DNA of 64,000 nucleotides from Pyrinomonadaceae bacterium (GCA_051002375.1 JBPCMK010000103.1:1756-65755), one strand, 5' to 3'; counted from the stretch's first letter, positions 3,472 through 29,579 are shown. The notes: generated by a model not told the origin, from the sequence alone. Program-made: numbers and translations.

Positions 3472-4260
3472 TTGATTATGAACATTTTAATTATCGCTGA
3501 TGTTGTGGCGCGTCCCGGACGACTTGCCGTTTTGGAAAAAATCCAAGAGCTGCGCGAGCGATATGAAATTGACATCGCTTTGATAAACGGCGAAAACGTC
3601 GCGGGCGGATTTTCGATAACTCCTGCGCTTGCCGATGAATTTTTCGCAAAAGGCATTGACCTGATGACTTCGGGCAATCATATTTTCGATAAGCCGGAAA
3701 TAATTCCCTATATCGAAAAAAATTCGCGTCTCGTGCGTCCGGCAAATTATCCGCCCGACACGCCCGGCAAAGGTTTATTTGTCGGCGAAGTTCGCGGCTA
3801 TAAAATTGCTCTTCTCAATCTTCTCGGCAGAGTTTTTATGCCGCCGGTTGACGACCCGTTTCGCATCGCCGACGCGCAAATCAAATCCGTTCCCGACGAC
3901 GTGAAAATTCGGCTGGTTGATTTTCACGCCGAAGCGACTTCGGAAAAATACGCGCTCGGCTGGTTTCTCGACGGTCGAGTTTCCGCCATCTACGGTTCGC
4001 ACACGCACGTGCAAACGGCGGACGAAAGAATTTTAGACGACGGCACGGCTTATATTACCGATGTCGGAATGACCGGAAGCTACGCGGGCGTGATCGGCAT
4101 GGACCGAAAAGATGTCATCGGGCGATTCACGAAATTTCCCGCCCGCCGCGCCGACCATGCCAAAGGCGACGTTTGGATTTGCGCGATTGTCGTCGAGATT
4201 GACGAAGAAACCGGAAAGGCGAATAAAATTGAAAGACTTCGGCTGGAACAGAAAAATTAA
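3472..4260 (+). CDS. ymdB: YmdB-family metallophosphoesterase (2',3'-cyclic-nucleotide phosphodiesterase-like)
   Basis: NILIIADVVARPGR...INGENVAGGFSIT...MTSGNHIFDK...DFHAEATSEK...GSHTHVQTADERIL matches the TIGR00282/YmdB signature. The start could be 3478. Confidence 0.85.
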   Translation: MIMNILIIADVVARPGRLAVLEKIQELRERYEIDIALINGENVAGGFSITPALADEFFAKGIDLMTSGNHIFDKPEIIPYIEKNSRLVRPANYPPDTPGKGLFVGEVRGYKIALLNLLGRVFMPPVDDPFRIADAQIKSVPDDVKIRLVDFHAEATSEKYALGWFLDGRVSAIYGSHTHVQTADERILDDGTAYITDVGMTGSYAGVIGMDRKDVIGRFTKFPARRADHAKGDVWICAIVVEIDEETGKANKIERLRLEQKN

Positions 4261-4300
4261 ATCCGTTCAGAACCGCCTGCACGAACGGACGGATTTTCTT
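4259..4300 (+). terminator. intrinsic terminator candidate after ymdB-like gene
   Basis: aaatccgt (4259-4266) pairs with acggattt (4289-4296), with inner ccgttc/gaacgg pairing, followed by tttctttgg. Confidence 0.5.
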
Positions 4301-4464
4301 TGGAAGCGGTTTGGAAACTACGAATTTGTTAAAAACAACAGCCAAACTATTCGTTATTCGCTATCAACTGTTCGTTGTTTGGCAGAAGAAAAAGGAATCT
4401 GCTTGAGAACAGCAAATAGTGAACTTCGGATCACATAAAATTTTAAGATTGGCAAATCGGAAAA

Positions 4465-5100
4465 TTACAGGTCAATTACGATAGGCAAATTCGTCGGCTC
4501 GTAAGATTCGTCGCAGTTTGAAGCGTTGATAAATTTCACGCCGAAATTTTCGGTTATTCCGTAACCGCAGTGAATATGTCCGAAGATGTGAAGTTTCGGT
4601 TTGATTTTTTCGACTCGTTTTCGTAATTCCTCGCAGCCCGTGTTTTCAATCCAATACTGTCTCGGAACTTCGTCTAAAATTCCGTTGGGCGGTCCGTGCG
4701 TAATTAAAATGTCCGTCTCGTCGGGAATTAATTTCCACTTTTCCGCGAGTTCCCTGCCGCGATTCAGGTTAAAAGCCCAATCGAAAAAGCGCGGCTGCCA
4801 AGGCGAGCCGTAAATTTTCAAGCCTTCGATTTCAACCGAAGAATCCTGCAAATAATCAATTGATCTGTCGAGCAAATTTCTCGCAAAATGATTGTTCGTT
4901 TCAAAAAGCCAATCGTGATTTCCGGCGACGAAAATTTTTCTGGCGTGCGGCAAATTGGCAAACCATTCGTTAAATAAAAATATCTCGTCAAACGTGCCGC
5001 GAATCGTCGCATCGCCCGCGTGGACGAGTATGTCGCCGTCCGGCACGCGGATTTGTTCATTGCAGTTGTGCGTGTCGGACAAACAAACGATTCGCGTCAT
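4465..5100 (-). CDS. calcineurin-like metallophosphoesterase
   Basis: 211 aa. Motifs LSDTHN, HAGDAT, VAGNHD, THGPP and GHIHCGYG are the classic MPP metal-binding blocks. Confidence 0.85.
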   Translation of the reverse strand: MTRIVCLSDTHNCNEQIRVPDGDILVHAGDATIRGTFDEIFLFNEWFANLPHARKIFVAGNHDWLFETNNHFARNLLDRSIDYLQDSSVEIEGLKIYGSPWQPRFFDWAFNLNRGRELAEKWKLIPDETDILITHGPPNGILDEVPRQYWIENTGCEELRKRVEKIKPKLHIFGHIHCGYGITENFGVKFINASNCDESYEPTNLPIVIDL

Positions 5101-5124
5101 CGTAATTTTCCTGAGTGAAATTAA

Positions 5125-6258
5125 TCAACTTTTGTAGATTCTCGAAACGAAGTTTCCGTTGAGAAATTCCTGTGGATTGATTTGACTTTGCGTAATTACG
5201 CCTTTGTAATTTCCCGACAGAAGCATCATCGCTGATTCTATTAAAGGAACGGCGGTCGTCGTTTGAATGGCGCGAAGATGTGTATTGTTAATTTGAAGCG
5301 GCTCGACGAAAAACGCTTTTTCCAACATTCGCCTCACGCCTTTCGAGTCGAATCCTTCGACCGAAGCGTAAGCCAAAACAAAATCTTCCTCGACCGCCGG
5401 AACTTCCCGCATAATTTTCCTTAAAAGTTTGTCCGGCAGATTTTCATCTTTTGTCAATTTTCTAATCAGACTCTCAACCCAGGCGTAATGTCCGACGTAA
5501 CGCAGAGTTTTGTAATCGAGGCGGCGGGATTTTCCGGCAAAAAATTCCGGCAAATCAGCCGCGCCGCCGCTCGTCAAATCCGCCTCAAAAATTTTGCCGC
5601 CGATGACGATTCGTTCGCGGTCGGACAATGCCGGTCGCTCGACGATTTTATAATCACGAACGACGCGGGAATTTTTGACGTATTCGGTCGCCACGCCAAT
5701 CGGCGACCACGTAAAACCGTAAAAATGCGGCTCGTGCGCGTGGGCGGAAAGCGCGCCCACTTTCATTCCGATTTTTTCGACGCTTTCATTTTCAAATTGC
5801 TCGACAAACTTTTGATAAAGCGACATCGTCAGCACATTGATAAAACCGGGCGCGAGTCCGGTCTGCAAAACGAATCCGGTTTCCGCACCTTCGGCGAGCG
5901 CGATTATCTCGTGGGTCTCGGCGACATATTCCGTCAGATTCGCGTAGTGCATTTTAAAGTCGCGCGAGAACCGAGCCATTCGCGGAGCTTGCGAACCGGG
6001 CGAACAATCAAGCAAAACATCACACGATTCAAACGCCTCTTTCATCGGTTCGCTAATGCCGTTTTTCGACATCAAAATCGTTTCGACCGCAGAAGTTTTC
6101 GGCGAATTGCTCAAAACTATTTCCTTCGTCTTACGCAAATTATCCGCGTTGATGTCGCCGAGATAAATCTCGATTTCCATCGTTGACCATTCGCGCAGAA
6201 GCAGCGCGACGGCTTCGCCGATGCCGCCCGCGCCGGCGATAAATATCTTTTTGCTCAT
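5125..6258 (-). CDS. saccharopine dehydrogenase-like NAD(P)-binding protein
   Basis: 377 aa. N-terminal Rossmann motif KIFIAGAGGIGEAVALLL. Length and C-terminal domain are consistent with the saccharopine/homospermidine dehydrogenase family (from memory). Confidence 0.6.
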   Translation of the reverse strand: MSKKIFIAGAGGIGEAVALLLREWSTMEIEIYLGDINADNLRKTKEIVLSNSPKTSAVETILMSKNGISEPMKEAFESCDVLLDCSPGSQAPRMARFSRDFKMHYANLTEYVAETHEIIALAEGAETGFVLQTGLAPGFINVLTMSLYQKFVEQFENESVEKIGMKVGALSAHAHEPHFYGFTWSPIGVATEYVKNSRVVRDYKIVERPALSDRERIVIGGKIFEADLTSGGAADLPEFFAGKSRRLDYKTLRYVGHYAWVESLIRKLTKDENLPDKLLRKIMREVPAVEEDFVLAYASVEGFDSKGVRRMLEKAFFVEPLQINNTHLRAIQTTTAVPLIESAMMLLSGNYKGVITQSQINPQEFLNGNFVSRIYKS

Positions 6259-6264
6259 TAGGAT

Positions 6265-6501
6265 TTATTCGTTCCGGTCGGATTCTTCGGAGCGTCGCAT
6301 TTCTTCGCCCTTCTCTAAACTCTCGGCAGCTTCTTGCCGCAAATTTCCGGCTTCGACGTTGTATTCGCCTTCGGCTTGCGTAATCGGATCGGCGGTCAAA
6401 ATTCCGCCGACGGTTTCGATTCCGCCGACGATGATCTGCCCGACCGCTTTTAAGTCTTCGGTTAAGGTAGTTTCTTTTCGTTCTTTATTTTCTTCCGTCA
6501 T
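6265..6501 (-). CDS. small acidic protein, possibly CsbD-like
   Basis: 78 aa. The segment GGILTADPITQAEGEYNVEAGNLRQEA loosely resembles the CsbD G-x-D-x-AEG repeat. Stop is 7 nt from the downstream gene start. Confidence 0.45.
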   Translation of the reverse strand: MTEENKERKETTLTEDLKAVGQIIVGGIETVGGILTADPITQAEGEYNVEAGNLRQEAAESLEKGEEMRRSEESDRNE

Positions 6502-6563
6502 ATCTAAAATTCTACAACGAAAAAGCCGACTTTGCGAACAAACAAAGTCGGTTGAGCCGTCTG

Positions 6564-9500
6564 TTACTCGATATTAAAATATTTCGCTTCTGGGTGATGA
6601 ATGATGATTGCCGAAGTTGATTGTTCGGGAACGAGTTGGAATTCTTCCGACAATTCGACCTCAATTCTTTCCGGCAGAAGCAGTTCAAAAAGTTTCGTTT
6701 GGTCTTCGAGATTCGGACACGCCGGATAGCCGAAGCTGTAACGCGAGCCTTGATAGCCTTGGTGGAAAAGTTTGGATAAATCTTTCGCATCTTGGTCAGC
6801 GATGCCGAATTCTTCGCGGATTCGTTTGTGCCACATTTCGGCTAAGGCTTCGGCGGATTCGACTGAAAGCCCGTGAAAAAGAAGATAATCGGTGTAGTTG
6901 TCCGAACGGAAAAGCTCGTGCGCGTATTCGCTGGCGCGTCGTCCCATCGTTACCAAATCGAACGCGACGACATCAATTTTCCCCGAATCTTTCGACGCGA
7001 AATAATCCGCTAAACAAAGATTTTTTCCGCCGCGCTGCTCTTTCGGTTGACGCGGAAATGTGAATCTTAATTTTTCGGTTTTCTCGTCCGTTTCATAGAT
7101 AATTAAATCGTTGCCTTCGGATTGACACGGAAAATATCCATAAACCAATTTCGCTTCCAAAAGTTTTTCGCGCATTGCTTTGGCTTTGATTTCGGCGAAT
7201 TTCGGATAAACTGTTTCCTGCAAAATTTGCTCGTATTCTTCTATTGATTTGCGCCCTTGTTTGTATTGCCATTGCCCTTTGAAAAGCGCGGTCTTGTTGA
7301 TGAATGCGAAGACTTTATTTAAATCTTTTATCTCGACGACTTTCGAGCCGTAAAAAGGTTTTTCGGGAATTTCGACATCGTTTGAAACGTCGGATTTCGT
7401 CGTGTGCGTCGTGTCGCCGGTTTGACGGTTTGAAACACGCGCGGCTTGTTTGCCGAGTTTGGCATCTTCGCCAACGAGGTCTTCTGCGTCGGAGACGGTT
7501 TCGATTGTCGCGTCTAATTCGCCCGCTAACGCAGGCGGTTCTGACAATTCGCCGACTGCCGCGACTTTGGACTTTGGACTTTGGACTTTGGACTGCTCGC
7601 GCTGCGTGAGCGCGTCCATCGCGTGCAGACCGTCGAACGCATCGCGGGCGTAGAAAAGTTTGCCGTTGTAAAGCGGAACCAAATCGCTGTCAACATATTT
7701 TCGATTTAACGCCGCGCCGCCCAAAATGACCGGAACATTGATGCCGCGCTCGTTCATAATTTCGAGATTGTCGCGCATCACCAAAGTTGATTTGACGAGC
7801 AGACCGCTCATTCCGATGGCATCGCAATGCGTTCCTTCAAAGACGCGCAGAATTTCGTCAATCGGTTGTTTGATGCCGAGATTTACTACTCGATAGCCGT
7901 TGTTCGTCAAAATTATATCAACCAAATTTTTGCCGATGTCGTGAACGTCGCCTTTGACGGTCGCCAAAACCATCACGCCTTTCGACTGCTCGCCTTCGAC
8001 TTTTTCCATAAACGGTTCGAGAAATTTGACCGCCGTTTTCATAACTTCGGCTGACTGCAAAACGAACGGCAACTGCATTTGTCCGCTTCCGAATAAATCG
8101 CCGACAACCTTCATTCCGTCGAGCAAAATGTTGTTGACGATTTCGAGCGCGGAATATTTTTCGAGCGCGATTTTCAAATTGTCTTCCAAGCCGATTTTCT
8201 CGCCGTCAATAATGTGATGTTTCAGCTTTTCTTCGGTCGAGAGATTTGAAACGTCAACCTTCATTGATTGCGCCGTTTTGCCCTGAAACATCGTCGTAAA
8301 TTCGCCGAGCGGATCATAAACGCAAACCTCGCTGTCATTATCTTTAGCAAATTTTCGGCGGTCGTAAATCAAATCCTGCGCGACTTCGATTTCGTGTTCG
8401 TTAAAGCGATTGAGCGGCAAAATTTTTGATGCGTTGACGATTGCCGAATTCATTCCGGCTTCGACCGCTTCGTGCAAGAAAATTGAATTAAGGACAACGC
8501 GAGCCGCCGGATTCAAGCCAAAACTGACGTTTGAAACACCCAAAATAATATTCGCTTCGGGCATTTCCGCGTGAATACGTTTGATTGATTCGATTGTCTC
8601 CGAAGCGTTTTTACGGTCTTCTTCGATTCCCGTCGAAATTGGCAGCGCGAGAGGATCGAAGAAAATATCGTGCGCCTCGATGCCGAATTCGGTCGCTTGT
8701 TTGAATGCGCGGCGGGCGATTTTCAATTTGTTTTCGGCGGTTCGCGCCATTCCTTCTTCGTCAATCAAACCGATGACAATCGCCGCGCCGTATTCTTTCG
8801 CTAATTCCAGAAGTTTTATAAAACGCGGCTCACCATCTTCGTAATTCGTCGAATTCAAAATGCACTTTCCGCCCGCCAGCTTTAAGCCTTCTTCCATTTT
8901 TTCCCACTCGGTCGAATCGAGCATCAGAGGAATTTTGACATTTGTTACAAGCCGCGAAACGAGCGTGTGCATATCTGAAACGCCGTCGCGCCCGACAAAA
9001 TCCACGTTGACATCTAAAATATGTGCGCCTTCGCGCTCTTGTTCTTTAGCGAGTTTTACAAGTCCGTCCCAATCTTCCGCCTCCAAAAGATCGCGCATTT
9101 TTTTCGAGCCTGAAGCGTTGACTCTTTCGCCGACGATTAAAAACGAATTGTCCTGCGTGTAAGGTTGCGAAAAATAAATCGAAGCCGCCGCCGGAGTGAA
9201 TTTTATCTCACGATTTTTCGGTGAGACATTCTGCATTTTTTCAACGACGAGTCGCAGATGTTCAAATGAAGTTCCGCAGCAACCGCCGACAACATTTGCG
9301 CCGAAGTCCTTCGCAAAATGCTCGACCTTTTTCGCAAAATCTTCGGGCGTTTCGCTGTAAAATTGTTTTCCGTCTTTGACTTCCGGCAGTCCAGCGTTTG
9401 GCAAAACAGAAACGGGAAACGGCGAATTCTCACACAAATATTTGACGTTTTCGGTCATTTGGTCGGGACCCGTTCCGCAGTTCATTCCGATCACGTCAAT

Positions 9501-24226: not shown

Positions 24227-24396
24227 CGATACGCTGCTTGCGTATCGCGCATCCGAAGCAAAGTTTTGCAATACGCCGCTTGCGTATCGCTCACCCGAAG
24301 CGAAGTTTTGCGATACGCAAGGCAGAATATGCGATACGCAAGTCAAGTATCGCCCACCGGAAGCGAAGTTTTACGATACGCAAGACGGAATTTGTG
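24227..24396. repeat. 42-bp tandem repeat array, each unit carrying a CGATACGC-N5-GCGTATCG-type palindrome
   Basis: Units at 24227-24268, 24269-24310 and 24332-24373, plus truncated copies at 24311-24331 and 24374-24396. See findings. Confidence 0.9.
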
Positions 24397-24433: not shown

Positions 24434-25006
24434 TTATTCTTTCGGCATTTGATTGACGATTTTCATAGTTTTAACGCTGACCGTCGTTACTCTTTTCAGC
24501 AGATCAATAACCTGTTCTTTATAATCGGCGAATTTGTAAGTATTAAATTTTTCCCGAATCGTCGCGTCCTGCGGCGTTTTTTCTTTATATTGGTCTAAAA
24601 TCCATTCGATTGCGCTTCGATTACCCAATTTATATTCCCAAGCCGCCGCCGGAACGCCCGTCAAAGTCGTGATCGAATCTATGATAATTGTGCCGGTTTC
24701 CTTATCGGCGCGAAGTTTGGTCTGCGGTTTGGCTTCAAATGCGGGGTTTTCTTTACCGTCAAACAAAGCCGTTTGTTTCGGCTTTCTTTTCAAATCGTTT
24801 CGCTTGAGCGCAAACGGTTTTTGCGTTTCATAATTAATATGCAAATCCATCAATTCCGCACCCCAATTTGCCCATTGGGAAAAATCCGCATAAAACGGCA
24901 GGCGCGGAAACTCGCGTTTCAAATTCTGCTCATACTTCACCCGATAAACAGGCGAATGAAGCGCGGCGTAAACGTAATAAAAATAATTTGAGTATATTTT
25001 TCTAGT
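24434..25006 (-). pseudogene. C-terminal remnant of a type IIG / type ISP-like restriction-modification enzyme
   Basis: Frame is open from 25006 with no credible start (the track ORF begins at internal GTG 24940). YFYYVYAALHSPVYRVKYEQNLKREFPRLPF and WEYKLGNRSAIEWILDQYKEK match my memory of the conserved C-terminal domain of these MTase-REase fusions. Only about 190 codons are present. Confidence 0.7.
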
Positions 25007-25409
25007 TCATTATTTCATCAAAAATAATTTCCAAGTTTTCCTCTGAAACTTCTAACATTTCACCGTGTTTTATCTTTAAAGAATCTAAAACGGAAGCGAA
25101 CTTTTGAAAACCGTTCTCGCTTCGCAATTCGATCCAATCAACATTTAAACTGTTTAATTGCCTCTTATTCATATCGGAAAGTTTATCGGCAACAAAAACG
25201 CGGTTGTCTCTGGCGATGACGGCATCAGCACTTTCGGGATTACCTTTGCCCATTAGTTTAACCTCGCGTTTATATTGATTGTTTCCTTCGATAAAATAAA
25301 AATCTATCTCGCGTTCAAAGGTTGTTTCATCAACTTCGACGTTTTTGCCTTTAAGTTTAACTGAATAATTTTCATCGGCGACCTGATACAGCTTACACAG
25401 CGTCAACAT
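25002..25409 (-). CDS. hypothetical protein with PD-(D/E)xK-like motif
   Basis: 135 aa. EIDFYFIEGNNQYKREVKLMGKGNPE gives D-x12-E-x-K. AT-rich. Last gene of the three-gene module. Confidence 0.6.
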   Translation of the reverse strand: MLTLCKLYQVADENYSVKLKGKNVEVDETTFEREIDFYFIEGNNQYKREVKLMGKGNPESADAVIARDNRVFVADKLSDMNKRQLNSLNVDWIELRSENGFQKFASVLDSLKIKHGEMLEVSEENLEIIFDEIMN

Positions 25410-25454
25410 CAGAGGTTTTTCAACTTTTTTGCCTGCGGTTGACCATAATCCACC

Positions 25455-25667
25455 TTATTCTTGAGATTCGGTAATTATTAAATCTTCAAGGTTTTCAGCA
25501 TATTCGTTTAGATTAACAGTTTCGCCGTTATAAAAACTGTCATCTTCAAAATCAACTGCCACCCAACGCCATTGCTCTACATTGTTTATCGTGCATTTAA
25601 CAGGTTGCAAGAACACGCCCGTTGCGAAAATTTTATCAGTATCTGAAAGATTGATTTGCTTATTCAT
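25455..25667 (-). CDS. small acidic hypothetical protein (70 aa)
   Basis: Its start overlaps the stop of the upstream gene (ATGA at 25664-25667). C-terminal half is strongly acidic (DFEDDSFYNGETVNLNEYAENLEDLIITESQE). Confidence 0.55.
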   Translation of the reverse strand: MNKQINLSDTDKIFATGVFLQPVKCTINNVEQWRWVAVDFEDDSFYNGETVNLNEYAENLEDLIITESQE

Positions 25668-26629
25668 TGATTTGCTAAAAACCTCACTTGCATTTGACTG
25701 AAATGTTTAACCGATTGGAAAAACTCATCGAGTTCATCGTAATTCTTAAAGACAAATTCATTTTTGATTTTAGCAAACGGACTTTTAGCGACTTCTCTTT
25801 GAAATTTGCCTTTATTAATTTCTTCGGAAATGATGAACATCTTAATTCTTAACTTATGAACTTGGTAAAGCCGCAGTAAACCTTTTGTGATGTCGGTTGT
25901 GTGTTCAACCTCAAAGGCGTGTGTCGGATAACCTTCTTCATCGAACCAGATGACATCAACAAATTTTACAGTGTTTAAGCTCAAGCCCGGAATCGCGCCT
26001 TCGGGGATTTCTTTTTCCGTGCATAAATCTCCTAAAACTCCGAAGATTGTTTGTTTGTTCTTGTCCGGTGCAGGAACGAATGTTCGATAATTCAAGTAAC
26101 TGCCAACCAAAACCAATTTTGCCTGCAAATCATAATGTGAAAGTTTGACATCATCCTGAATCTCGATGTTAATAATTTTTGATATGTCCTTTAAACGACT
26201 TAAATCTCGCTTGTGATTCGGGAAAAGTATTTCAGTAACTTTATTACAGTAAAGTTCGGGTATTTCTTCCAAATACAAACCGTCTTCCGTCAAAACACAA
26301 TGAAACTGAAAACTACCTTTTTGCGTGGATAATAACTTATCTTTATGTTGAAGAAAGGCAGCGAGCGAACCGACGCAAACATCCATTTTGGTTTTATACT
26401 TCTTGACGACAACAAATGCGCCTTCCTGATTATGCGATGCTAAAGTCTGCATAATATTAGCGTTGATACCGTGCCAATCTTCCGCGCCGCCCGAGATAAG
26501 ATAAAACATTCCATTCGTGTCGCGGTAAAGTTTTCGTGAAGGCTTTACCTGTTCGAGTTTGATGTTCTGAATTTTCTCAAGTTCATCAATAACAAGTTTT
26601 CTGTCTTGGTCGGTAAATTTAGAAGTCAT
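25664..26629 (-). CDS. hypothetical two-domain protein with restriction-endonuclease-like C-terminal core
   Basis: 321 aa. VKFVDVIWFDEEGYPTHAFEVEHTTDITKGLLRLYQV resembles the D...E-x-E/K nuclease core seen in restriction-endonuclease-like folds. This is inference. Confidence 0.65.
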   Translation of the reverse strand: MTSKFTDQDRKLVIDELEKIQNIKLEQVKPSRKLYRDTNGMFYLISGGAEDWHGINANIMQTLASHNQEGAFVVVKKYKTKMDVCVGSLAAFLQHKDKLLSTQKGSFQFHCVLTEDGLYLEEIPELYCNKVTEILFPNHKRDLSRLKDISKIINIEIQDDVKLSHYDLQAKLVLVGSYLNYRTFVPAPDKNKQTIFGVLGDLCTEKEIPEGAIPGLSLNTVKFVDVIWFDEEGYPTHAFEVEHTTDITKGLLRLYQVHKLRIKMFIISEEINKGKFQREVAKSPFAKIKNEFVFKNYDELDEFFQSVKHFSQMQVRFLANQ

Positions 26630-26642
26630 GCGTTATTTTCCA

Positions 26643-27258
26643 AAAGATTTATTATAGCCACGCCGCTTTAGCGCGTGGTCAACGATGTTCAAATTATCGT
26701 TAGGGCGTTTCAACGTCCTTTTCAAAATGCTTTAGCCATTTTCTTTTTCGACTAATTCGAGGCGTTTATGAATTTTCCCCGATTTATGATGTTCTTTTTG
26801 ATTCTGCACATATTTAACAACCCATTTCAAATCTTTAGTGCCAAAACTAACGATTCCATAGCCGTTTTGCCATTCTAATAATTTATGATTTGAGTTGTGA
26901 TTGATGAAATACGCGCTCGCGCCTTTTAATTGTCCAATCCATTCGGCAGGCTGAATGTTTGGTGGAACGGAAACGGCAAGGTGAATGTGGTTTTCGATAC
27001 CGCCGATGGCGTGAACGAAAATTTCGGACGTTTCCAACATCTTCTTTCGTAGAAAACCATAGAGTTTCGGTTCTATTTCCGCTTTGATTAACGGCAAATT
27101 ATTCTTCGTATGCCAAGTGATATGAAAATTAATTTCGGAATATGCTCGACGCGACATAAATTTGAGTTTATCGATTTTTGAAAGGGCGTTGAAACGCCCT
27201 CAATGAATTTGTTTTATCTTTAACCACGCGCTGAAGCGGCGTGGCTAATAAATTTTCG
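26643..27258. mobile_element. IS200/IS605-type or RAYT element: Y1 transposase flanked by nested inverted hairpins
   Basis: Outer: 26657-26680 gccacgccgctttagcgcgtggtc versus 27222-27246 aaccacgcgctgaagcggcgtggct (inverted, 2 mismatches over 24 nt). Inner: 26702-26719 agggcgtttcaacgtcct versus 27183-27200 agggcgttgaaacgccct. The flanking aaaagatttatt / aataaatttt are also inverted. Confidence 0.8.
26732..27157 (-). CDS. tnpA: IS200/IS605-family Y1 (HUH) transposase / REP-associated tyrosine transposase
   Basis: 141 aa. HUH motif ENHIHLAVS and the catalytic Tyr block KYVQNQKEHH. No tnpB partner. Confidence 0.88.
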   Translation of the reverse strand: MSRRAYSEINFHITWHTKNNLPLIKAEIEPKLYGFLRKKMLETSEIFVHAIGGIENHIHLAVSVPPNIQPAEWIGQLKGASAYFINHNSNHKLLEWQNGYGIVSFGTKDLKWVVKYVQNQKEHHKSGKIHKRLELVEKENG

Positions 27259-27636
27259 TTCTACTAAAACATCATCATCATAAACAAGCAATCCGCGAAT
27301 TGCTTGACAAACGACTTTTGGGTCTTCATCCTGCAAGACTTCAAACAAATACGGTTTATTCTGCGGCTTGCGAAGTCTGCCGATTGCCGAAACTATCTCG
27401 CGTCGGGTTGTGGTGTCCGTTTCCTGTTTGAAGGCATTCCAGAGAGGTTCGAGACTTTTTGTTTGATTAAGTTTGGCGATGTTCTTTGCCGCTAAAAATC
27501 TTATCTTCGGGTTCGTATGTCCGAGCAAATTAAACAAAAATCCGCCTTGAAAGCCGTTCGGCAGATAACCCAAATCTTCGAGTGTGGCAATTAAATTCTT
27601 ATCACTTTGATTTTCGATATTAGTTTCGGTCATCAT
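27220..27636 (-). CDS. HEAT-repeat protein (138 aa)
   Basis: Three HEAT-like units (NPKIRFLAAKNIAKL, TTRREIVSAIGRL, DPKVVCQAIRGLL). The last 8 codons (SHAASARG) are encoded by the outer hairpin of the transposase element. Confidence 0.65.
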   Translation of the reverse strand: MMTETNIENQSDKNLIATLEDLGYLPNGFQGGFLFNLLGHTNPKIRFLAAKNIAKLNQTKSLEPLWNAFKQETDTTTRREIVSAIGRLRKPQNKPYLFEVLQDEDPKVVCQAIRGLLVYDDDVLVERKFISHAASARG

Positions 27637-28783
27637 TTAATAATTTTACTTGCAAACAGATTTTTAGAAAAATTTCCTTCAATTCTTTTTTGATGTTCAA
27701 AATAGAAATATTAGTTCGATCAATCAGTTCCGCGATAAATGTTCCCGTTCCCGTCGCCGGATCGAGAATATCCACGCCTTTATCCGAGAGAGTTTTGTTG
27801 AAATGTTTATCCAACAGCCAATCGGTCGCGTCAATCATAAACCTGACGATTTCGTTCGGCGTATAAACGACTCCGAGTTTGTCCGCGCCTTTCGGATTAT
27901 AAACTTTGTAGAAATTTTCATAGACGGTTTTGAGAAATTTCTGCTTTTCGTGGTTATCCGTAATGCCCGAAGCCGCGTCGCGGATGGTTTTGTAAAAGTA
28001 TTCGATGCGGCTCAGATAGTTTTTCCGCACTTCGCGCGTCATAAACGTATGAATCACGTCTTCGAGTTCACGCGCAATGTTATTCGAGCGGTGAAACTCG
28101 GCATCGCCGAAAACATTGGTGAAAATATCTTCGGTCAAGATGTGCTGAATTACCATTTCCCTTATATCTTCAGGCATTATTTCGGGATTGATTTCATTAC
28201 GGGCGATTTCCAAGAATTCGTCGCGCTTATCGCGGAAGGATTTATTCTTTTCCGCTTCGAGTTCCATCAGTTCGCGCAAACCGCTGACAATCGTCGGCAC
28301 GTTTTCCTTGAACTGTTCGAGAGCTTTGTTGAATTCTTTTACTTCCGAAGGCTCGTAATTGATAAACTTGTCGAGCAAATCATCGAGCAGATTCCACTCC
28401 GTCATCGAAACGCGCATCGCCTCCGCGCCTTCCTGAATCAAAACCGCCGTCTGCGAATCTTCAAAGATGATGTTCTTGGTCGGATACCCCGCTTCGTTGA
28501 GCTTTTTATTGATTTCAACGTCGAGTTTATCCTTTGAATCTTTGGCTTCCCAGTAACCGACATCAATGCCGCCGAAATACTTGATAACGCCGTCAGGTCT
28601 GATGCGCTTGCCGCTTTTCCCGACGAATTCAAATTGTTCGACAAGAAGCAAATTCTTCTTTTCCGCGTAAGAACGCAGCAGATTGGCAAAAGCAAATGTA
28701 ATCGAACCTTCGTTGCGCGTTCCGCCCGCGTTGAGGATTTCGTGAAGCTGGTTGTGATATTTGGTAATTAAGAGTTTTGACAT
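27620..28783 (-). pseudogene. N-terminal remnant of a type IIG / type ISP-like restriction-modification enzyme (PD-ExK nuclease plus start of N6-adenine MTase)
   Basis: RPDGVIKYFGGIDVGYWEAKD is a PD...EAK nuclease motif. GVVYTPNEIVRFMI and the AdoMet motif I DILDPATGTGTFIAELIDR follow. Sense then decays into AT-rich codons at about 27715, with a stop at 27620. No NPPY/DPPY motif IV anywhere downstream. Confidence 0.75.
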
Positions 28784-29024: not shown

Positions 29025-29579
29025 ATGAACAATTTACAACGAAAAATAAAAAATATAAGTTTGGTTTTATCTTTGGCTTTCGGGTTTGTGATTTTGTCGA
29101 GCGTTACGGCGCACGCGCAGTATCGCAATGACGACGATTATTATCGCAACCAGCAGCAGCGCGAACGCCGCGAAGAAAGACGCGAGCGCAAAGACAAGCG
29201 ACGCGACCGCCGCGAAGACCGCAATGACGGTAATTACGGCAACAATAACGATAATAACGGTAATTACGGCAACAATAACGGTTATTATAACAATGGCAAT
29301 TATAATAACGGCTACGGCAACAATAATTCTTACCGATTGGCGCAGCAATACGGCTATCAGGACGGTGTGAACAAAGGGTTGGAAGAACGACGCGAGGGCG
29401 ACCGCGACAATCCGCAAAGCACAAGTCCTTATAAAAACGGTTTGAACGGTTACGACGGACGCGGCAACAAAGACGCTTACAAACAGGCTTATCGTCAGGC
29501 GTTTCTGCAAGGCTTCGACCGGGGTTATAATCAAGGCGGCAATAACGGTTACAATAATCGAAATCGTCGCGGTTACTAA
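29025..29579 (+). CDS. secreted low-complexity protein (R/E/D-rich block then N/G/Y-rich block)
   Basis: Signal peptide ISLVLSLAFGFVILSSVTAHA-QY. RERREERRERKDKRRDRREDR, then GNYGNNNDNNGNYGNNNGYYNNGNYNNGYGNNN. 22-nt direct repeat at 29229-29250 and 29256-29277. Confidence 0.7.
   Translation: MNNLQRKIKNISLVLSLAFGFVILSSVTAHAQYRNDDDYYRNQQQRERREERRERKDKRRDRREDRNDGNYGNNNDNNGNYGNNNGYYNNGNYNNGYGNNNSYRLAQQYGYQDGVNKGLEERREGDRDNPQSTSPYKNGLNGYDGRGNKDAYKQAYRQAFLQGFDRGYNQGGNNGYNNRNRRGY

Follow-up and report, generated by a model that had tools for sequence, protein, structure and literature searches.

A stretch of 64,000 nucleotides (nt) from a Pyrinomonadaceae bacterium (GCA_051002375.1, JBPCMK010000103.1:1756-65755; hereafter the window, with positions counted from its first letter) contains a group of three open reading frames (ORFs) in which a preliminary description had seen a candidate defence or toxin system. 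Comparison with related genomes shows that the locus is a wrecked restriction-modification (R-M) operon, comprising a HEAT-repeat methyltransferase (MTase) gene and a CfrBI-family restriction endonuclease (REase) gene, and that a cassette of two genes now occupies the place of the junction between them, the M/R junction. One gene of the cassette encodes a 321-amino acid (aa) protein, R321; the other, the small gene, encodes a 70-aa protein. The reading tentatively preferred here, with a probability of about 0.45 in which the anatomy of the locus is included, is that R321 is a modification-dependent nuclease which displaces the R-M operon much as the dam-replacing gene (drg) of Neisseria displaces dam.

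The three ORFs lie on the minus strand at 25664-26629 (R321), 25455-25667 (the small gene) and 25002-25409 (135 aa), where the preliminary description had placed them; the ATGA overlap of the first two at 25664-25667 and the gap of 45 nt before the third, which it had also reported, are both real. The status of the 135-aa ORF is different from what was assumed. It matches the Pfam family PF09516 (RE_CfrBI) with 28.5 bits (cut-off 25) at positions 180-257 of 257 only, and the PADLOC profile PDLC03496 (E 2.1e-38) at positions 175-308 of 311 only; the curated threshold of the CfrBI family is thus passed, but the ORF falls far short of the length of the relatives (304-337 aa). This coverage identifies it as what remains of the 3' end of a gene for a CfrBI-family type II restriction endonuclease, encoding about residues 176-310 of that enzyme; the ORF is a product of the decay of a longer gene and no independent member of a module. 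The small gene and the 135-aa ORF share one reading frame, with the TAA stop codon of the former and 15 codons between them. The CfrBI-family homology (remnant span 24999-25454) crosses the 45-nt spacer, which encodes GGLWSTAGKKVEKPL, and begins directly after this TAA, at 25454. Since the homology reaches the stop codon through the spacer, the latter is a coding remnant and not intergenic DNA.

The remnant is 93-94% identical at the aa level and 82-86% at the nt level to the C-termini of full-length 309-315-aa genes found in related Pyrinomonadaceae (loci L008, L009, L011 and L012; loci are designated by L numbers throughout), its nearest relatives, for which an aa identity of 89-93% was also obtained. 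The D-x12-E-x-K motif noted earlier is indeed present and lies within the most conserved block of the CfrBI-like family, where its residues (D36, E49 and K51 of the 135-aa ORF) are invariant; a near-invariant cysteine beside the E-x-K motif, Cys48, is replaced by arginine in the window. The ratio of nonsynonymous to synonymous differences (pN/pS), used raw in place of the corresponding substitution-rate ratio (dN/dS) because synonymous sites are saturated, is 0.06-0.08 between the remnant and canonical genes. Such a low value might speak for a functional third gene, but it follows from recent derivation from intact genes, to which the remnant is 93-94% identical.

Several other explanations of the small and 135-aa ORFs were considered and rejected. 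They do not represent a single gene with a readable stop codon, because the N-termini of the full-length relatives are unlike the 70-aa protein, and the two ORFs are out of frame in L001. Nor is the 70-aa protein the lost N-terminus of the CfrBI enzyme: no profile match relates them, and both coexist in L137 and L150. The idea that forms of 130-135 aa are a conserved short functional nuclease is largely rejected on the basis of the loci whose contexts were checked one by one: the truncation lies at a wide variety of positions, the better preserved short forms are 91-97% identical to intact genes and the others are decayed.

In a scan limited to one genome for each species, 509 genomes contained genes related to the 135-aa ORF, and 80 loci were fetched. 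About 70 of these 80 contain a gene for an MTase of about 470 aa, combining HEAT repeats with a PF01555 N4/N6 MTase, followed by a full-length REase gene of about 305-320 codons; the two genes usually overlap as ATGA. The hosts of this canonical operon are bacteria and archaea, including Acidobacteriota, Patescibacteria, Ignavibacteria, Gammaproteobacteria and Altiarchaeota. The 135-aa ORF therefore belongs to a known restriction family with a known partner, the HEAT-N4/N6 MTase directly upstream in the approximately 70 intact relatives. This outcome, like the origin of the ORF by decay of a longer gene, is one that the preliminary description had named as refuting its proposal. In this fusion, which was observed in L008-L087 (in L009, for example, at 4107-6405) and is seen also in candidate phyla radiation (CPR) bacteria and Altiarchaeota, an N-terminal HEAT domain of about 170 aa precedes the PF01555 domain, and the C-terminal half of the REase keeps 59-66% identity across phyla. 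The canonical operon is co-directional, M then R, with the HEAT N-terminus on the MTase, unlike the CfrBI genes themselves, which a preprint describes as divergent with a common promoter (bioRxiv 10.64898/2025.12.04.692298).

Only fragments of both canonical genes are left in the window: 135 of about 310 aa of the REase, corresponding to its C-terminal catalytic part, and 138 of about 470 aa of the partner MTase of PF01555 type. The latter fragment is a minus-strand ORF at 27220-27636 with HEAT repeats (Pfam HEAT_2, 3e-12). It matches the canonical MTase of L009 (phmmer 4e-77) only at approximately q20-144 of 468, where q denotes the position in the canonical protein, and is 91-93% identical in aa sequence to the intact MTases of L009, L011 and L012. 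By this alignment it is identified as the 5' stub of the operon's MTase, whose catalytic domain has been lost; motif IV of PF01555-type MTases, SPPY, is visible in the longer stubs of relatives. Nucleotide homology of the window to canonical operons is confined to two segments, 27650-27251 (81-86% identity, about the first 130 MTase codons) and 25454-24999 (about the last 150 REase codons). The loss of the catalytic domain explains why no methyltransferase had been seen at this locus, and that earlier statement is borne out for the window as a whole: motif and phmmer scans of its ORFs of at least 100 aa, for N4/N6 and C5 signatures, found no intact DNA methyltransferase, although these scans were not exhaustive. 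In place of the adjacent intact cognate MTase of a type II R-M system there is the 138-aa HEAT stub. The pN/pS of stub and remnant against intact genes is 0.06-0.10, the same as between intact genes, and the two flanking pieces are recent wrecks, not partners of the cassette. The closest relatives, L008, L009, L011 and L012, keep the intact canonical operon, and in L011 and L012 the canonical operon and the window have the downstream gene in common.

The same architecture recurs in other genomes. A set of 92 R321 loci, in which some duplicate contigs are included, was assembled from context look-ups and a metagenome scan with R321, and was mapped by stop-to-stop ORFs and phmmer comparison with the canonical methylase (468 aa) and endonuclease. 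The conserved unit is usually the pair of R321 and the small gene, placed between a 3'-truncated MTase gene and a 5'-truncated REase gene. Among 70 complete R321 copies, 64 are a single intact ORF. A methylase stub was found in 46 of the 59 loci with enough upstream sequence, the small gene in 54 of 63 and an endonuclease remnant in 47 of 63, while an intact MTase was found in none of the 46. The MTase homology ends between q71 and q429 of 468, compared with q444-468 in canonical operons, and the REase homology starts between q8 and q258, compared with q1-6. The longest common class of MTase stubs stops directly after motif I (FDPFGGSGT). The leader motif GCAGCATAA precedes the R321 start codon in many loci. 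The third ORF is anything from absent (0 aa) to about 300 aa long; it is fragmented in L092 and has drifted to about 50% identity, with pN/pS about 0.4, in L093, L094, L096 and L090. Of the proposed co-occurrence of three genes, the pair of R321 and the small gene is therefore what is conserved, and a triad is not. A related product of decay was observed in L017, from another Pyrinomonadaceae metagenome-assembled genome (MAG), where residues 1-83 of R321 and residues 14-95 of the CfrBI remnant are encoded together in a single ORF at 5737-6240, a deletion derivative of the window architecture.

R321 has 335 homologues. The best 120 of them are nearly all 318-323 aa long (with few fragments and one 361-aa call) and 65-93% identical; all 120 carry a precomputed PF27126 (NmeDI_C) assignment and all are named 'hypothetical'. 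R321 itself gave no match in Pfam, in a model set without PF27126, or in NCBIfam, and in PADLOC only a weak one: residues 155-261 match positions 168-278 of the 351 in PDLC03534 (3.8e-6). Together these matches assign an NmeDI_C catalytic domain to the R321 family. The D...E-x-E arrangement previously noticed at the end of the protein lies in its most conserved block, and D225, D230, E240, E242, H243 and K249 are invariant in 43 homologues, with every invariant residue retained in the window copy. Both larger ORFs thus encode proteins of PD-(D/E)XK type (NmeDI_C and CfrBI family), in agreement with the initial view of two nuclease-like proteins.

The likeness of R321 to R.NmeDI, a type II REase of 351 aa that cuts on both sides of RCCGGY, is limited to the C-terminal PD-(D/E)XK domain. 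The match extends over no more than about 110 profile positions, the first 150 aa bear no relation to R.NmeDI, and the C5 methylase and Vsr neighbours are missing beside R321, which persists without any methylase; R321 therefore shows neither the full-length likeness nor the neighbouring cognate methylase of an NmeDI-type enzyme. In a model predicted with AlphaFold2 (AF2), a beta-rich N-terminal domain (residues ~1-140) has a predicted local distance difference test score (pLDDT) of about 90, and the C-terminal domain is weak and poorly resolved. The best PDB matches found with Foldseek are PD-(D/E)XK enzymes, all weak (Hjc with E 3e-3, PvuII and the methyl-directed NhoI), and single-sequence and profile searches of PDB sequences returned nothing usable. 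An exhaustive profile search recovered each domain without the other, which marks them as separable modules: some proteins of about 170 aa consist of the N-terminal domain only, P0472 combines it with a HARE-HTH domain and P0414 with a different D..ECK nuclease, and the C-terminal domain is also preceded by other N-terminal regions, about 230 aa long. The N-terminal domain of R321, found also in P0401, P0402, P0472 and P0414, has the signature KFDE.DR...E.E....L..VG..RK...D..G..Y...GG...WHGI. It appears to be an undescribed DNA-associated domain. Plasmid relatives of R321 are only distant (22-31%), being 420-aa genes annotated as type II restriction endonucleases with inconsistent methylase neighbours.

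R321 is under strong purifying selection, with pN/pS of 0.07-0.10 and saturated pS; the copies of the window and L096, for example, are 92% identical in aa and about 78% in nt sequence. Distant copies (54-58% identical) stand solitary among housekeeping genes with no methylase near (L153, L157, L123 and L105), their neighbours being genes for an amidohydrolase and an RRM protein, lipoyl synthase, PGI and an AraC-type regulator. This solitary clade is also under purifying selection, with pN/pS of 0.08 for L152/L153. R321 is thus intact and constrained where no cognate methylase survives, so it must work without one, and since a conventional type II endonuclease could not persist without its methylase, R321 is a methylase-independent nuclease. 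The suggestion that the nucleases of the locus must be modification-dependent, restrained or activated by infection therefore holds for the 321-aa protein in one respect, as it must act without a cognate methylase (no intact MTase in the 46 loci); obligate restraint by the 70-aa protein is unlikely, for reasons given below with that protein.

The cassette and its surroundings differ in ancestry. In many invaded loci the flanks are 91-97% identical to one canonical operon and far less similar to the flanks around nearly the same cassettes. The cassettes of L111 and L112 are 92% identical (pS 0.54), compared with 73% and 86% for their two flanks (pS 0.81-0.82), and nt identity steps up at the cassette borders; the flanks of L111 are 91-92% identical to canonical L034 and L038, and those of L112 95-96% identical to canonical L064 and L024. 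Likewise, the flanks of L015 are 93-94% identical to canonical L014. These comparisons indicate that cassette and flanks have different histories, the cassette having been exchanged between operon backgrounds or the flanks overwritten, and homologous recombination in the HEAT and CfrBI C-terminal regions would produce either outcome.

The junctions are numerous and are tied to the ends of the cassette. MTase homology stops 0-40 nt from the R321 start codon in most loci, with gaps of 54-146 nt in a few, and REase homology resumes 0-25 nt past the stop codon of the small gene in nearly all loci, at varied truncation points. Within a single Pyrinomonadaceae clade with R321 proteins 88-93% identical there are at least 12 right junctions, from q148 to q217, combined variously with left junctions at q302, about q220, q207 and q144, the last beside an IS200-like element described below. 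Among invaded loci overall there are dozens of distinct left and right junctions, with both host genes truncated, and the internal deletions and stranded pieces expected from random decay are rare. The junctions form apparent ladders of nested deletions, each with one end of the cassette as its anchor.

Under the reading preferred here, R321 would recognise DNA through its N-terminal domain, probably where the DNA bears the mark of the HEAT-MTase or another modification, and would cut it with the C-terminal PD-(D/E)XK domain. Such a nuclease could not coexist with the resident methylase, and loss of the methylase alone would render the resident endonuclease lethal; the only viable acquisitions would be recombination events that remove the M/R junction and disable both genes together. 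Homologous recombination within the flanking HEAT and CfrBI sequences would then carry the cassette from operon to operon. Because both genes must die together, the model predicts the limits observed in the mapped loci, where MTase homology never extends beyond q429 and REase homology never begins before q8, and it also predicts solitary R321 copies in genomes without the operon. Two features common to type IV and type IIM enzymes were found in R321: it is stable without a cognate methylase (none intact in 46 loci, 64 of 70 ORFs intact, a solitary clade), and it has a separate nuclease domain next to a predicted reader domain, on the basis of the two-domain AF2 model and the independent occurrence of the domains.

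The documented precedent is drg, a low-GC gene which is inserted in dam, truncating it, and which encodes an endonuclease specific for GmeATC (PMC4269198; PMC516771). In both cases a nuclease gene of low GC content lies in, or in place of, an MTase gene, leaving a truncated methylase, the methylase and nuclease alleles are alternatives at one locus, and the nuclease (NmeBII/Drg in Neisseria) needs no cognate methylase. The differences are considerable. Drg is DpnI-like and its dependence on GmeATC is proven, whereas R321 is an unrelated two-domain protein whose modification dependence is inferred. In the present case an entire M+R operon was knocked out instead of a solitary methylase, the cassette has a second, small gene and ladders of nested deletions at its ends, and it is spread over many phyla, whereas dam/drg is confined to one genus. 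In the literature on NmeDI, CfrBI and drg no description was found of the R321 cassette or of its association with the operon of HEAT-MTase and CfrBI-type genes. The canonical operon and its remnants fall into known type II families, and dam/drg is the one documented parallel to the way in which the cassette behaves.

A number of points weigh against this reading. No significant match to a modified-base-reading fold (SRA, EVE/PUA or winged helix) was obtained in Foldseek searches of the PDB and in PDB sequence searches, which covered the N-terminal domain within the whole protein, and the low confidence in the C-terminal half of the AF2 model and the weakness of the Foldseek matches are also unfavourable. 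A modification-dependent enzyme would meet a fully methylated chromosome when invading. The replacement model alone does not predict nested deletions anchored at both ends of the cassette, and a cognate methylase may lie elsewhere in these mostly fragmentary MAGs. Finally, the reading assigns no role to the small protein, which is found also beside the intact canonical operon of L084 and the MvaI/BcnI-type pair of L001.

The anchored deletions are better accommodated if the cassette is a selfish element of homing type, which is the main rival of the preferred reading but is unlikely. R321 would cleave a site at the M/R junction and the break would be repaired from a cassette-bearing copy with the HEAT and CfrBI flanks as arms, so that the cassette would propagate through this one operon family and ruin it; residual half-sites at the cassette borders would provoke more cuts and outward deletions, and the small protein might blunt killing by leftover endonuclease. 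The cassette is nearly always found at one operon, the junction is gone in every invaded locus (M up to q429 at most, R from q8 at the earliest), and the same neighbourhood appears to be either canonical or invaded, as the downstream gene common to the window and the canonical L011 and L012 suggests. Flank homology ends near the cassette edges regardless of the truncation point, cutting at half-sites would account for the many right junctions of one Pyrinomonadaceae clade, several pairs of loci have a cassette younger than the flanks, with identity changing abruptly at the borders, and purifying selection on R321 is strong. Free-standing homing endonuclease genes share with R321 this presence or absence at a conserved locus, the destroyed junction in carriers and the distinct histories of cassette and flanks. 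They differ in that R321 has no canonical family signature and no phage, intron or intein context, with no homologue among 50,697 phage records. The junctions, moreover, are many and variable, with no single precise insertion point, both host genes are destroyed, unlike in classical homing, no target sequence was identified, and the solitary clade without operon remnants is still under purifying selection.

A more specific version is rather doubtful. Here R321 and the small protein would form a selfish killer of R-M systems which homes into the M/R junctions of a single, widespread type II operon family, disables methylase and endonuclease at one stroke and reaches further operons with the remnants as homology arms, and the small protein would neutralise the leftover endonuclease, so letting the invaded cell survive post-segregational killing.

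Ordinary decay of a four-gene R-M operon, in which R321 would be a conventional second or replacement type II enzyme guarded by the HEAT-MTase or by an unlinked methylase of matching specificity and the window would hold a dying copy with all its genes turning into pseudogenes, is improbable. The C-terminal domain of R321 does belong to a type II REase family (NmeDI_C), and its distant plasmid homologues bear a corresponding annotation. In some loci the cassette is still surrounded by the greater part of both genes (MTase to q403-429, REase from q8-33), and decay is evident in places, R321 being frameshifted in L005 and fused in L017 and the remnant being in pieces in L092. However, decay would hardly spare R321 in 64 of 70 copies while leaving no complete MTase in 46 loci, with the longest stubs ending right after motif I or 39 aa before the end of the MTase, and the low pN/pS of R321 is maintained despite the dead MTase. 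Solitary copies without a neighbouring methylase are also contrary to it, as a conventional endonuclease would be lethal there.

The small protein has a pN/pS of about 0.2-0.3. Its 105 homologues, 61-86 aa in length, share the conserved core FATGVFLQP..C.IN..EQWRW, which forms a beta-hairpin followed by an acidic tail; in the AF2 model (pLDDT 72) the hairpin occupies residues 18-40. No Pfam, PADLOC or NCBIfam profile matched it, Foldseek returned chance-level matches only (E at least 2), and PDB sequence searches gave nothing usable. The gene is coupled to R321 through the ATGA overlap, but intact R321 without it was found in at least nine loci (including L120, L134, L123, L138, L139 and L151-L153), and in L120 and L134 R321 directly abuts a nearly full endonuclease gene. 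A 110-aa ORF after the solitary R321 of L153 was considered as a distant homologue and rejected, as it shows no similarity. The small gene also lies beside an MvaI/BcnI-type methylase-endonuclease pair in L001, in the same type of junction with a CfrBI remnant. R321 and the small protein thus lack the obligate co-occurrence of a toxin and its antitoxin. The absence of the small gene beside intact R321 and its presence beside other restriction enzymes argue against an obligate antitoxin or immunity protein, as which the 70-aa protein had initially been interpreted; it is probably accessory.

Two loci show the small gene in other surroundings. In L084, a divergent homologue at 6479-7044 follows an intact canonical M+R operon without R321; next comes an ORF of 86 aa that contains a D..E-x-K-like motif (RPDFLIER...EIHEIKG). 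In L001 (5666-8459; equal to L010 and L002-L004), the HEAT domain is in frame with an MvaI/BcnI-type MTase domain (PDLC03305), and the order is the HEAT-MTase fusion, an MvaI_BcnI endonuclease, the small gene and a CfrBI remnant. In loci of the L001 type the HEAT and CfrBI flanks are conserved, and the M+R module between them appears to be exchanged as a whole.

It is very improbable that a single novel defence or toxin system is made up of the three ORFs, with two active nucleases checked by the acidic 70-aa protein as antitoxin, immunity protein or DNA mimic, as first proposed: the coupling of R321 and the small gene, their co-occurrence in 54 of 63 loci, the D..ExK core and low pN/pS kept by the remnant and the lack of a PADLOC match in the window to any known multi-gene defence system fit that proposal, but the third ORF is a truncation product of variable length with a low pN/pS explained by its recent origin, R321 stays intact without the small gene (in L153 its downstream ORF is unrelated), the small gene accompanies other enzymes, and the comparative data leave a two-gene cassette and an operon remnant.

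In the window the entire island is lodged inside a dead type IIG/ISP-like R-M fusion gene on the minus strand. The 5' fragment of this gene, a 387-aa ORF at 27620-28783, matches PDLC03621 (5.6e-105) at positions 6-356 of 1024 and includes the Pfam ISP_coupler domain and the beginning of N6_Mtase; the 3' fragment, a 168-aa ORF at 24434-24940, matches Pfam Type_ISP_C (4.3e-36) and positions 862-1012 of 1024 in PDLC03621. The GC (guanine plus cytosine) content is 36-39% over ~24750-27750 and 45-53% on both sides. The earlier view of the module as foreign, AT-rich cargo within a dead R-M gene, next to a Y1 transposase, is supported by the split ISP-like gene and the drop in GC. A counterpart of the ISP C-terminal fragment lies 3' of the REase remnant in L016; this and the downstream gene of L011 and L012 suggest that related genomes have this neighbourhood in common, with a canonical operon in some and an invaded one in others. 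A second chromosomal site of the island in Pyrinomonadaceae-like genomes, besides the type IIG/ISP site of the window, L092 and L016, was observed in L005 and L093 (ENA sample ERZ25071726), where two invaded operons lie downstream of a mutS2-like gene (MutS_V and Smr).

An IS200-like Y1 element at 26643-27251 on the minus strand, with a transposase (TnpA) ORF at 26732-27157, sits between the MTase stub and the nuclease gene. The transposase matches Pfam Y1_Tnp (PF01797, 1.8e-20) and NCBIfam transpos_IS200 (NF033573, 1.5e-17, 64 bits against a cut-off of 55). The ends carry nested inverted repeats, 26655-26686/27216-27247 (32 nt, 91%) and 26702-26728/27174-27200 (27 nt, 89%), each arm of which forms a hairpin itself. 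A Y1_Tnp transposase between inverted hairpin repeats at both ends is characteristic of IS200/IS605 elements associated with repetitive extragenic palindromes (REP), and the layout resembles a REP-associated tyrosine transposase (RAYT). This Y1/REP element removed a further part of the MTase in the window. The same order of stub, Y1 element and nuclease is present in L096 and L017, a Y1 element lies directly upstream of the nuclease at the contig start in L097, and a fragment of the element was observed in L027. Scans of the region for promoters and terminators, Rfam families and tRNAs were at chance level or empty. Next to the island, a 42-nt tandem repeat (2.1 copies, 89% matches) at 24229-24318 lies between a 212-aa ORF and the ISP C-terminal fragment, and a plus-strand ORF of 184 aa at 29025-29579 has a signal-peptide-like start and a low-complexity middle part rich in Asn, Gly, Tyr, Arg and Asp, with no Pfam match.

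For genome annotation, these results mean that widely called 'CfrBI family' proteins of 130-150 aa and 'HEAT' proteins of 140-290 aa can be truncation products beside the cassette. R-M operons are thought to be hard to lose, since their loss kills the cell, and here a conserved nuclease cassette replaces the methylase/endonuclease junction of one operon family in dozens of genomes of several phyla. A cassette of homing type would live as a parasite of R-M systems and would illustrate the natural disarming of addiction modules. If R321 is modification-dependent, the dam/drg case would generalise to a broad arms race between methylating and methylation-reading systems, and R321 would at once offer an enzyme for which a candidate substrate can be named, DNA carrying the mark of the HEAT-MTase.

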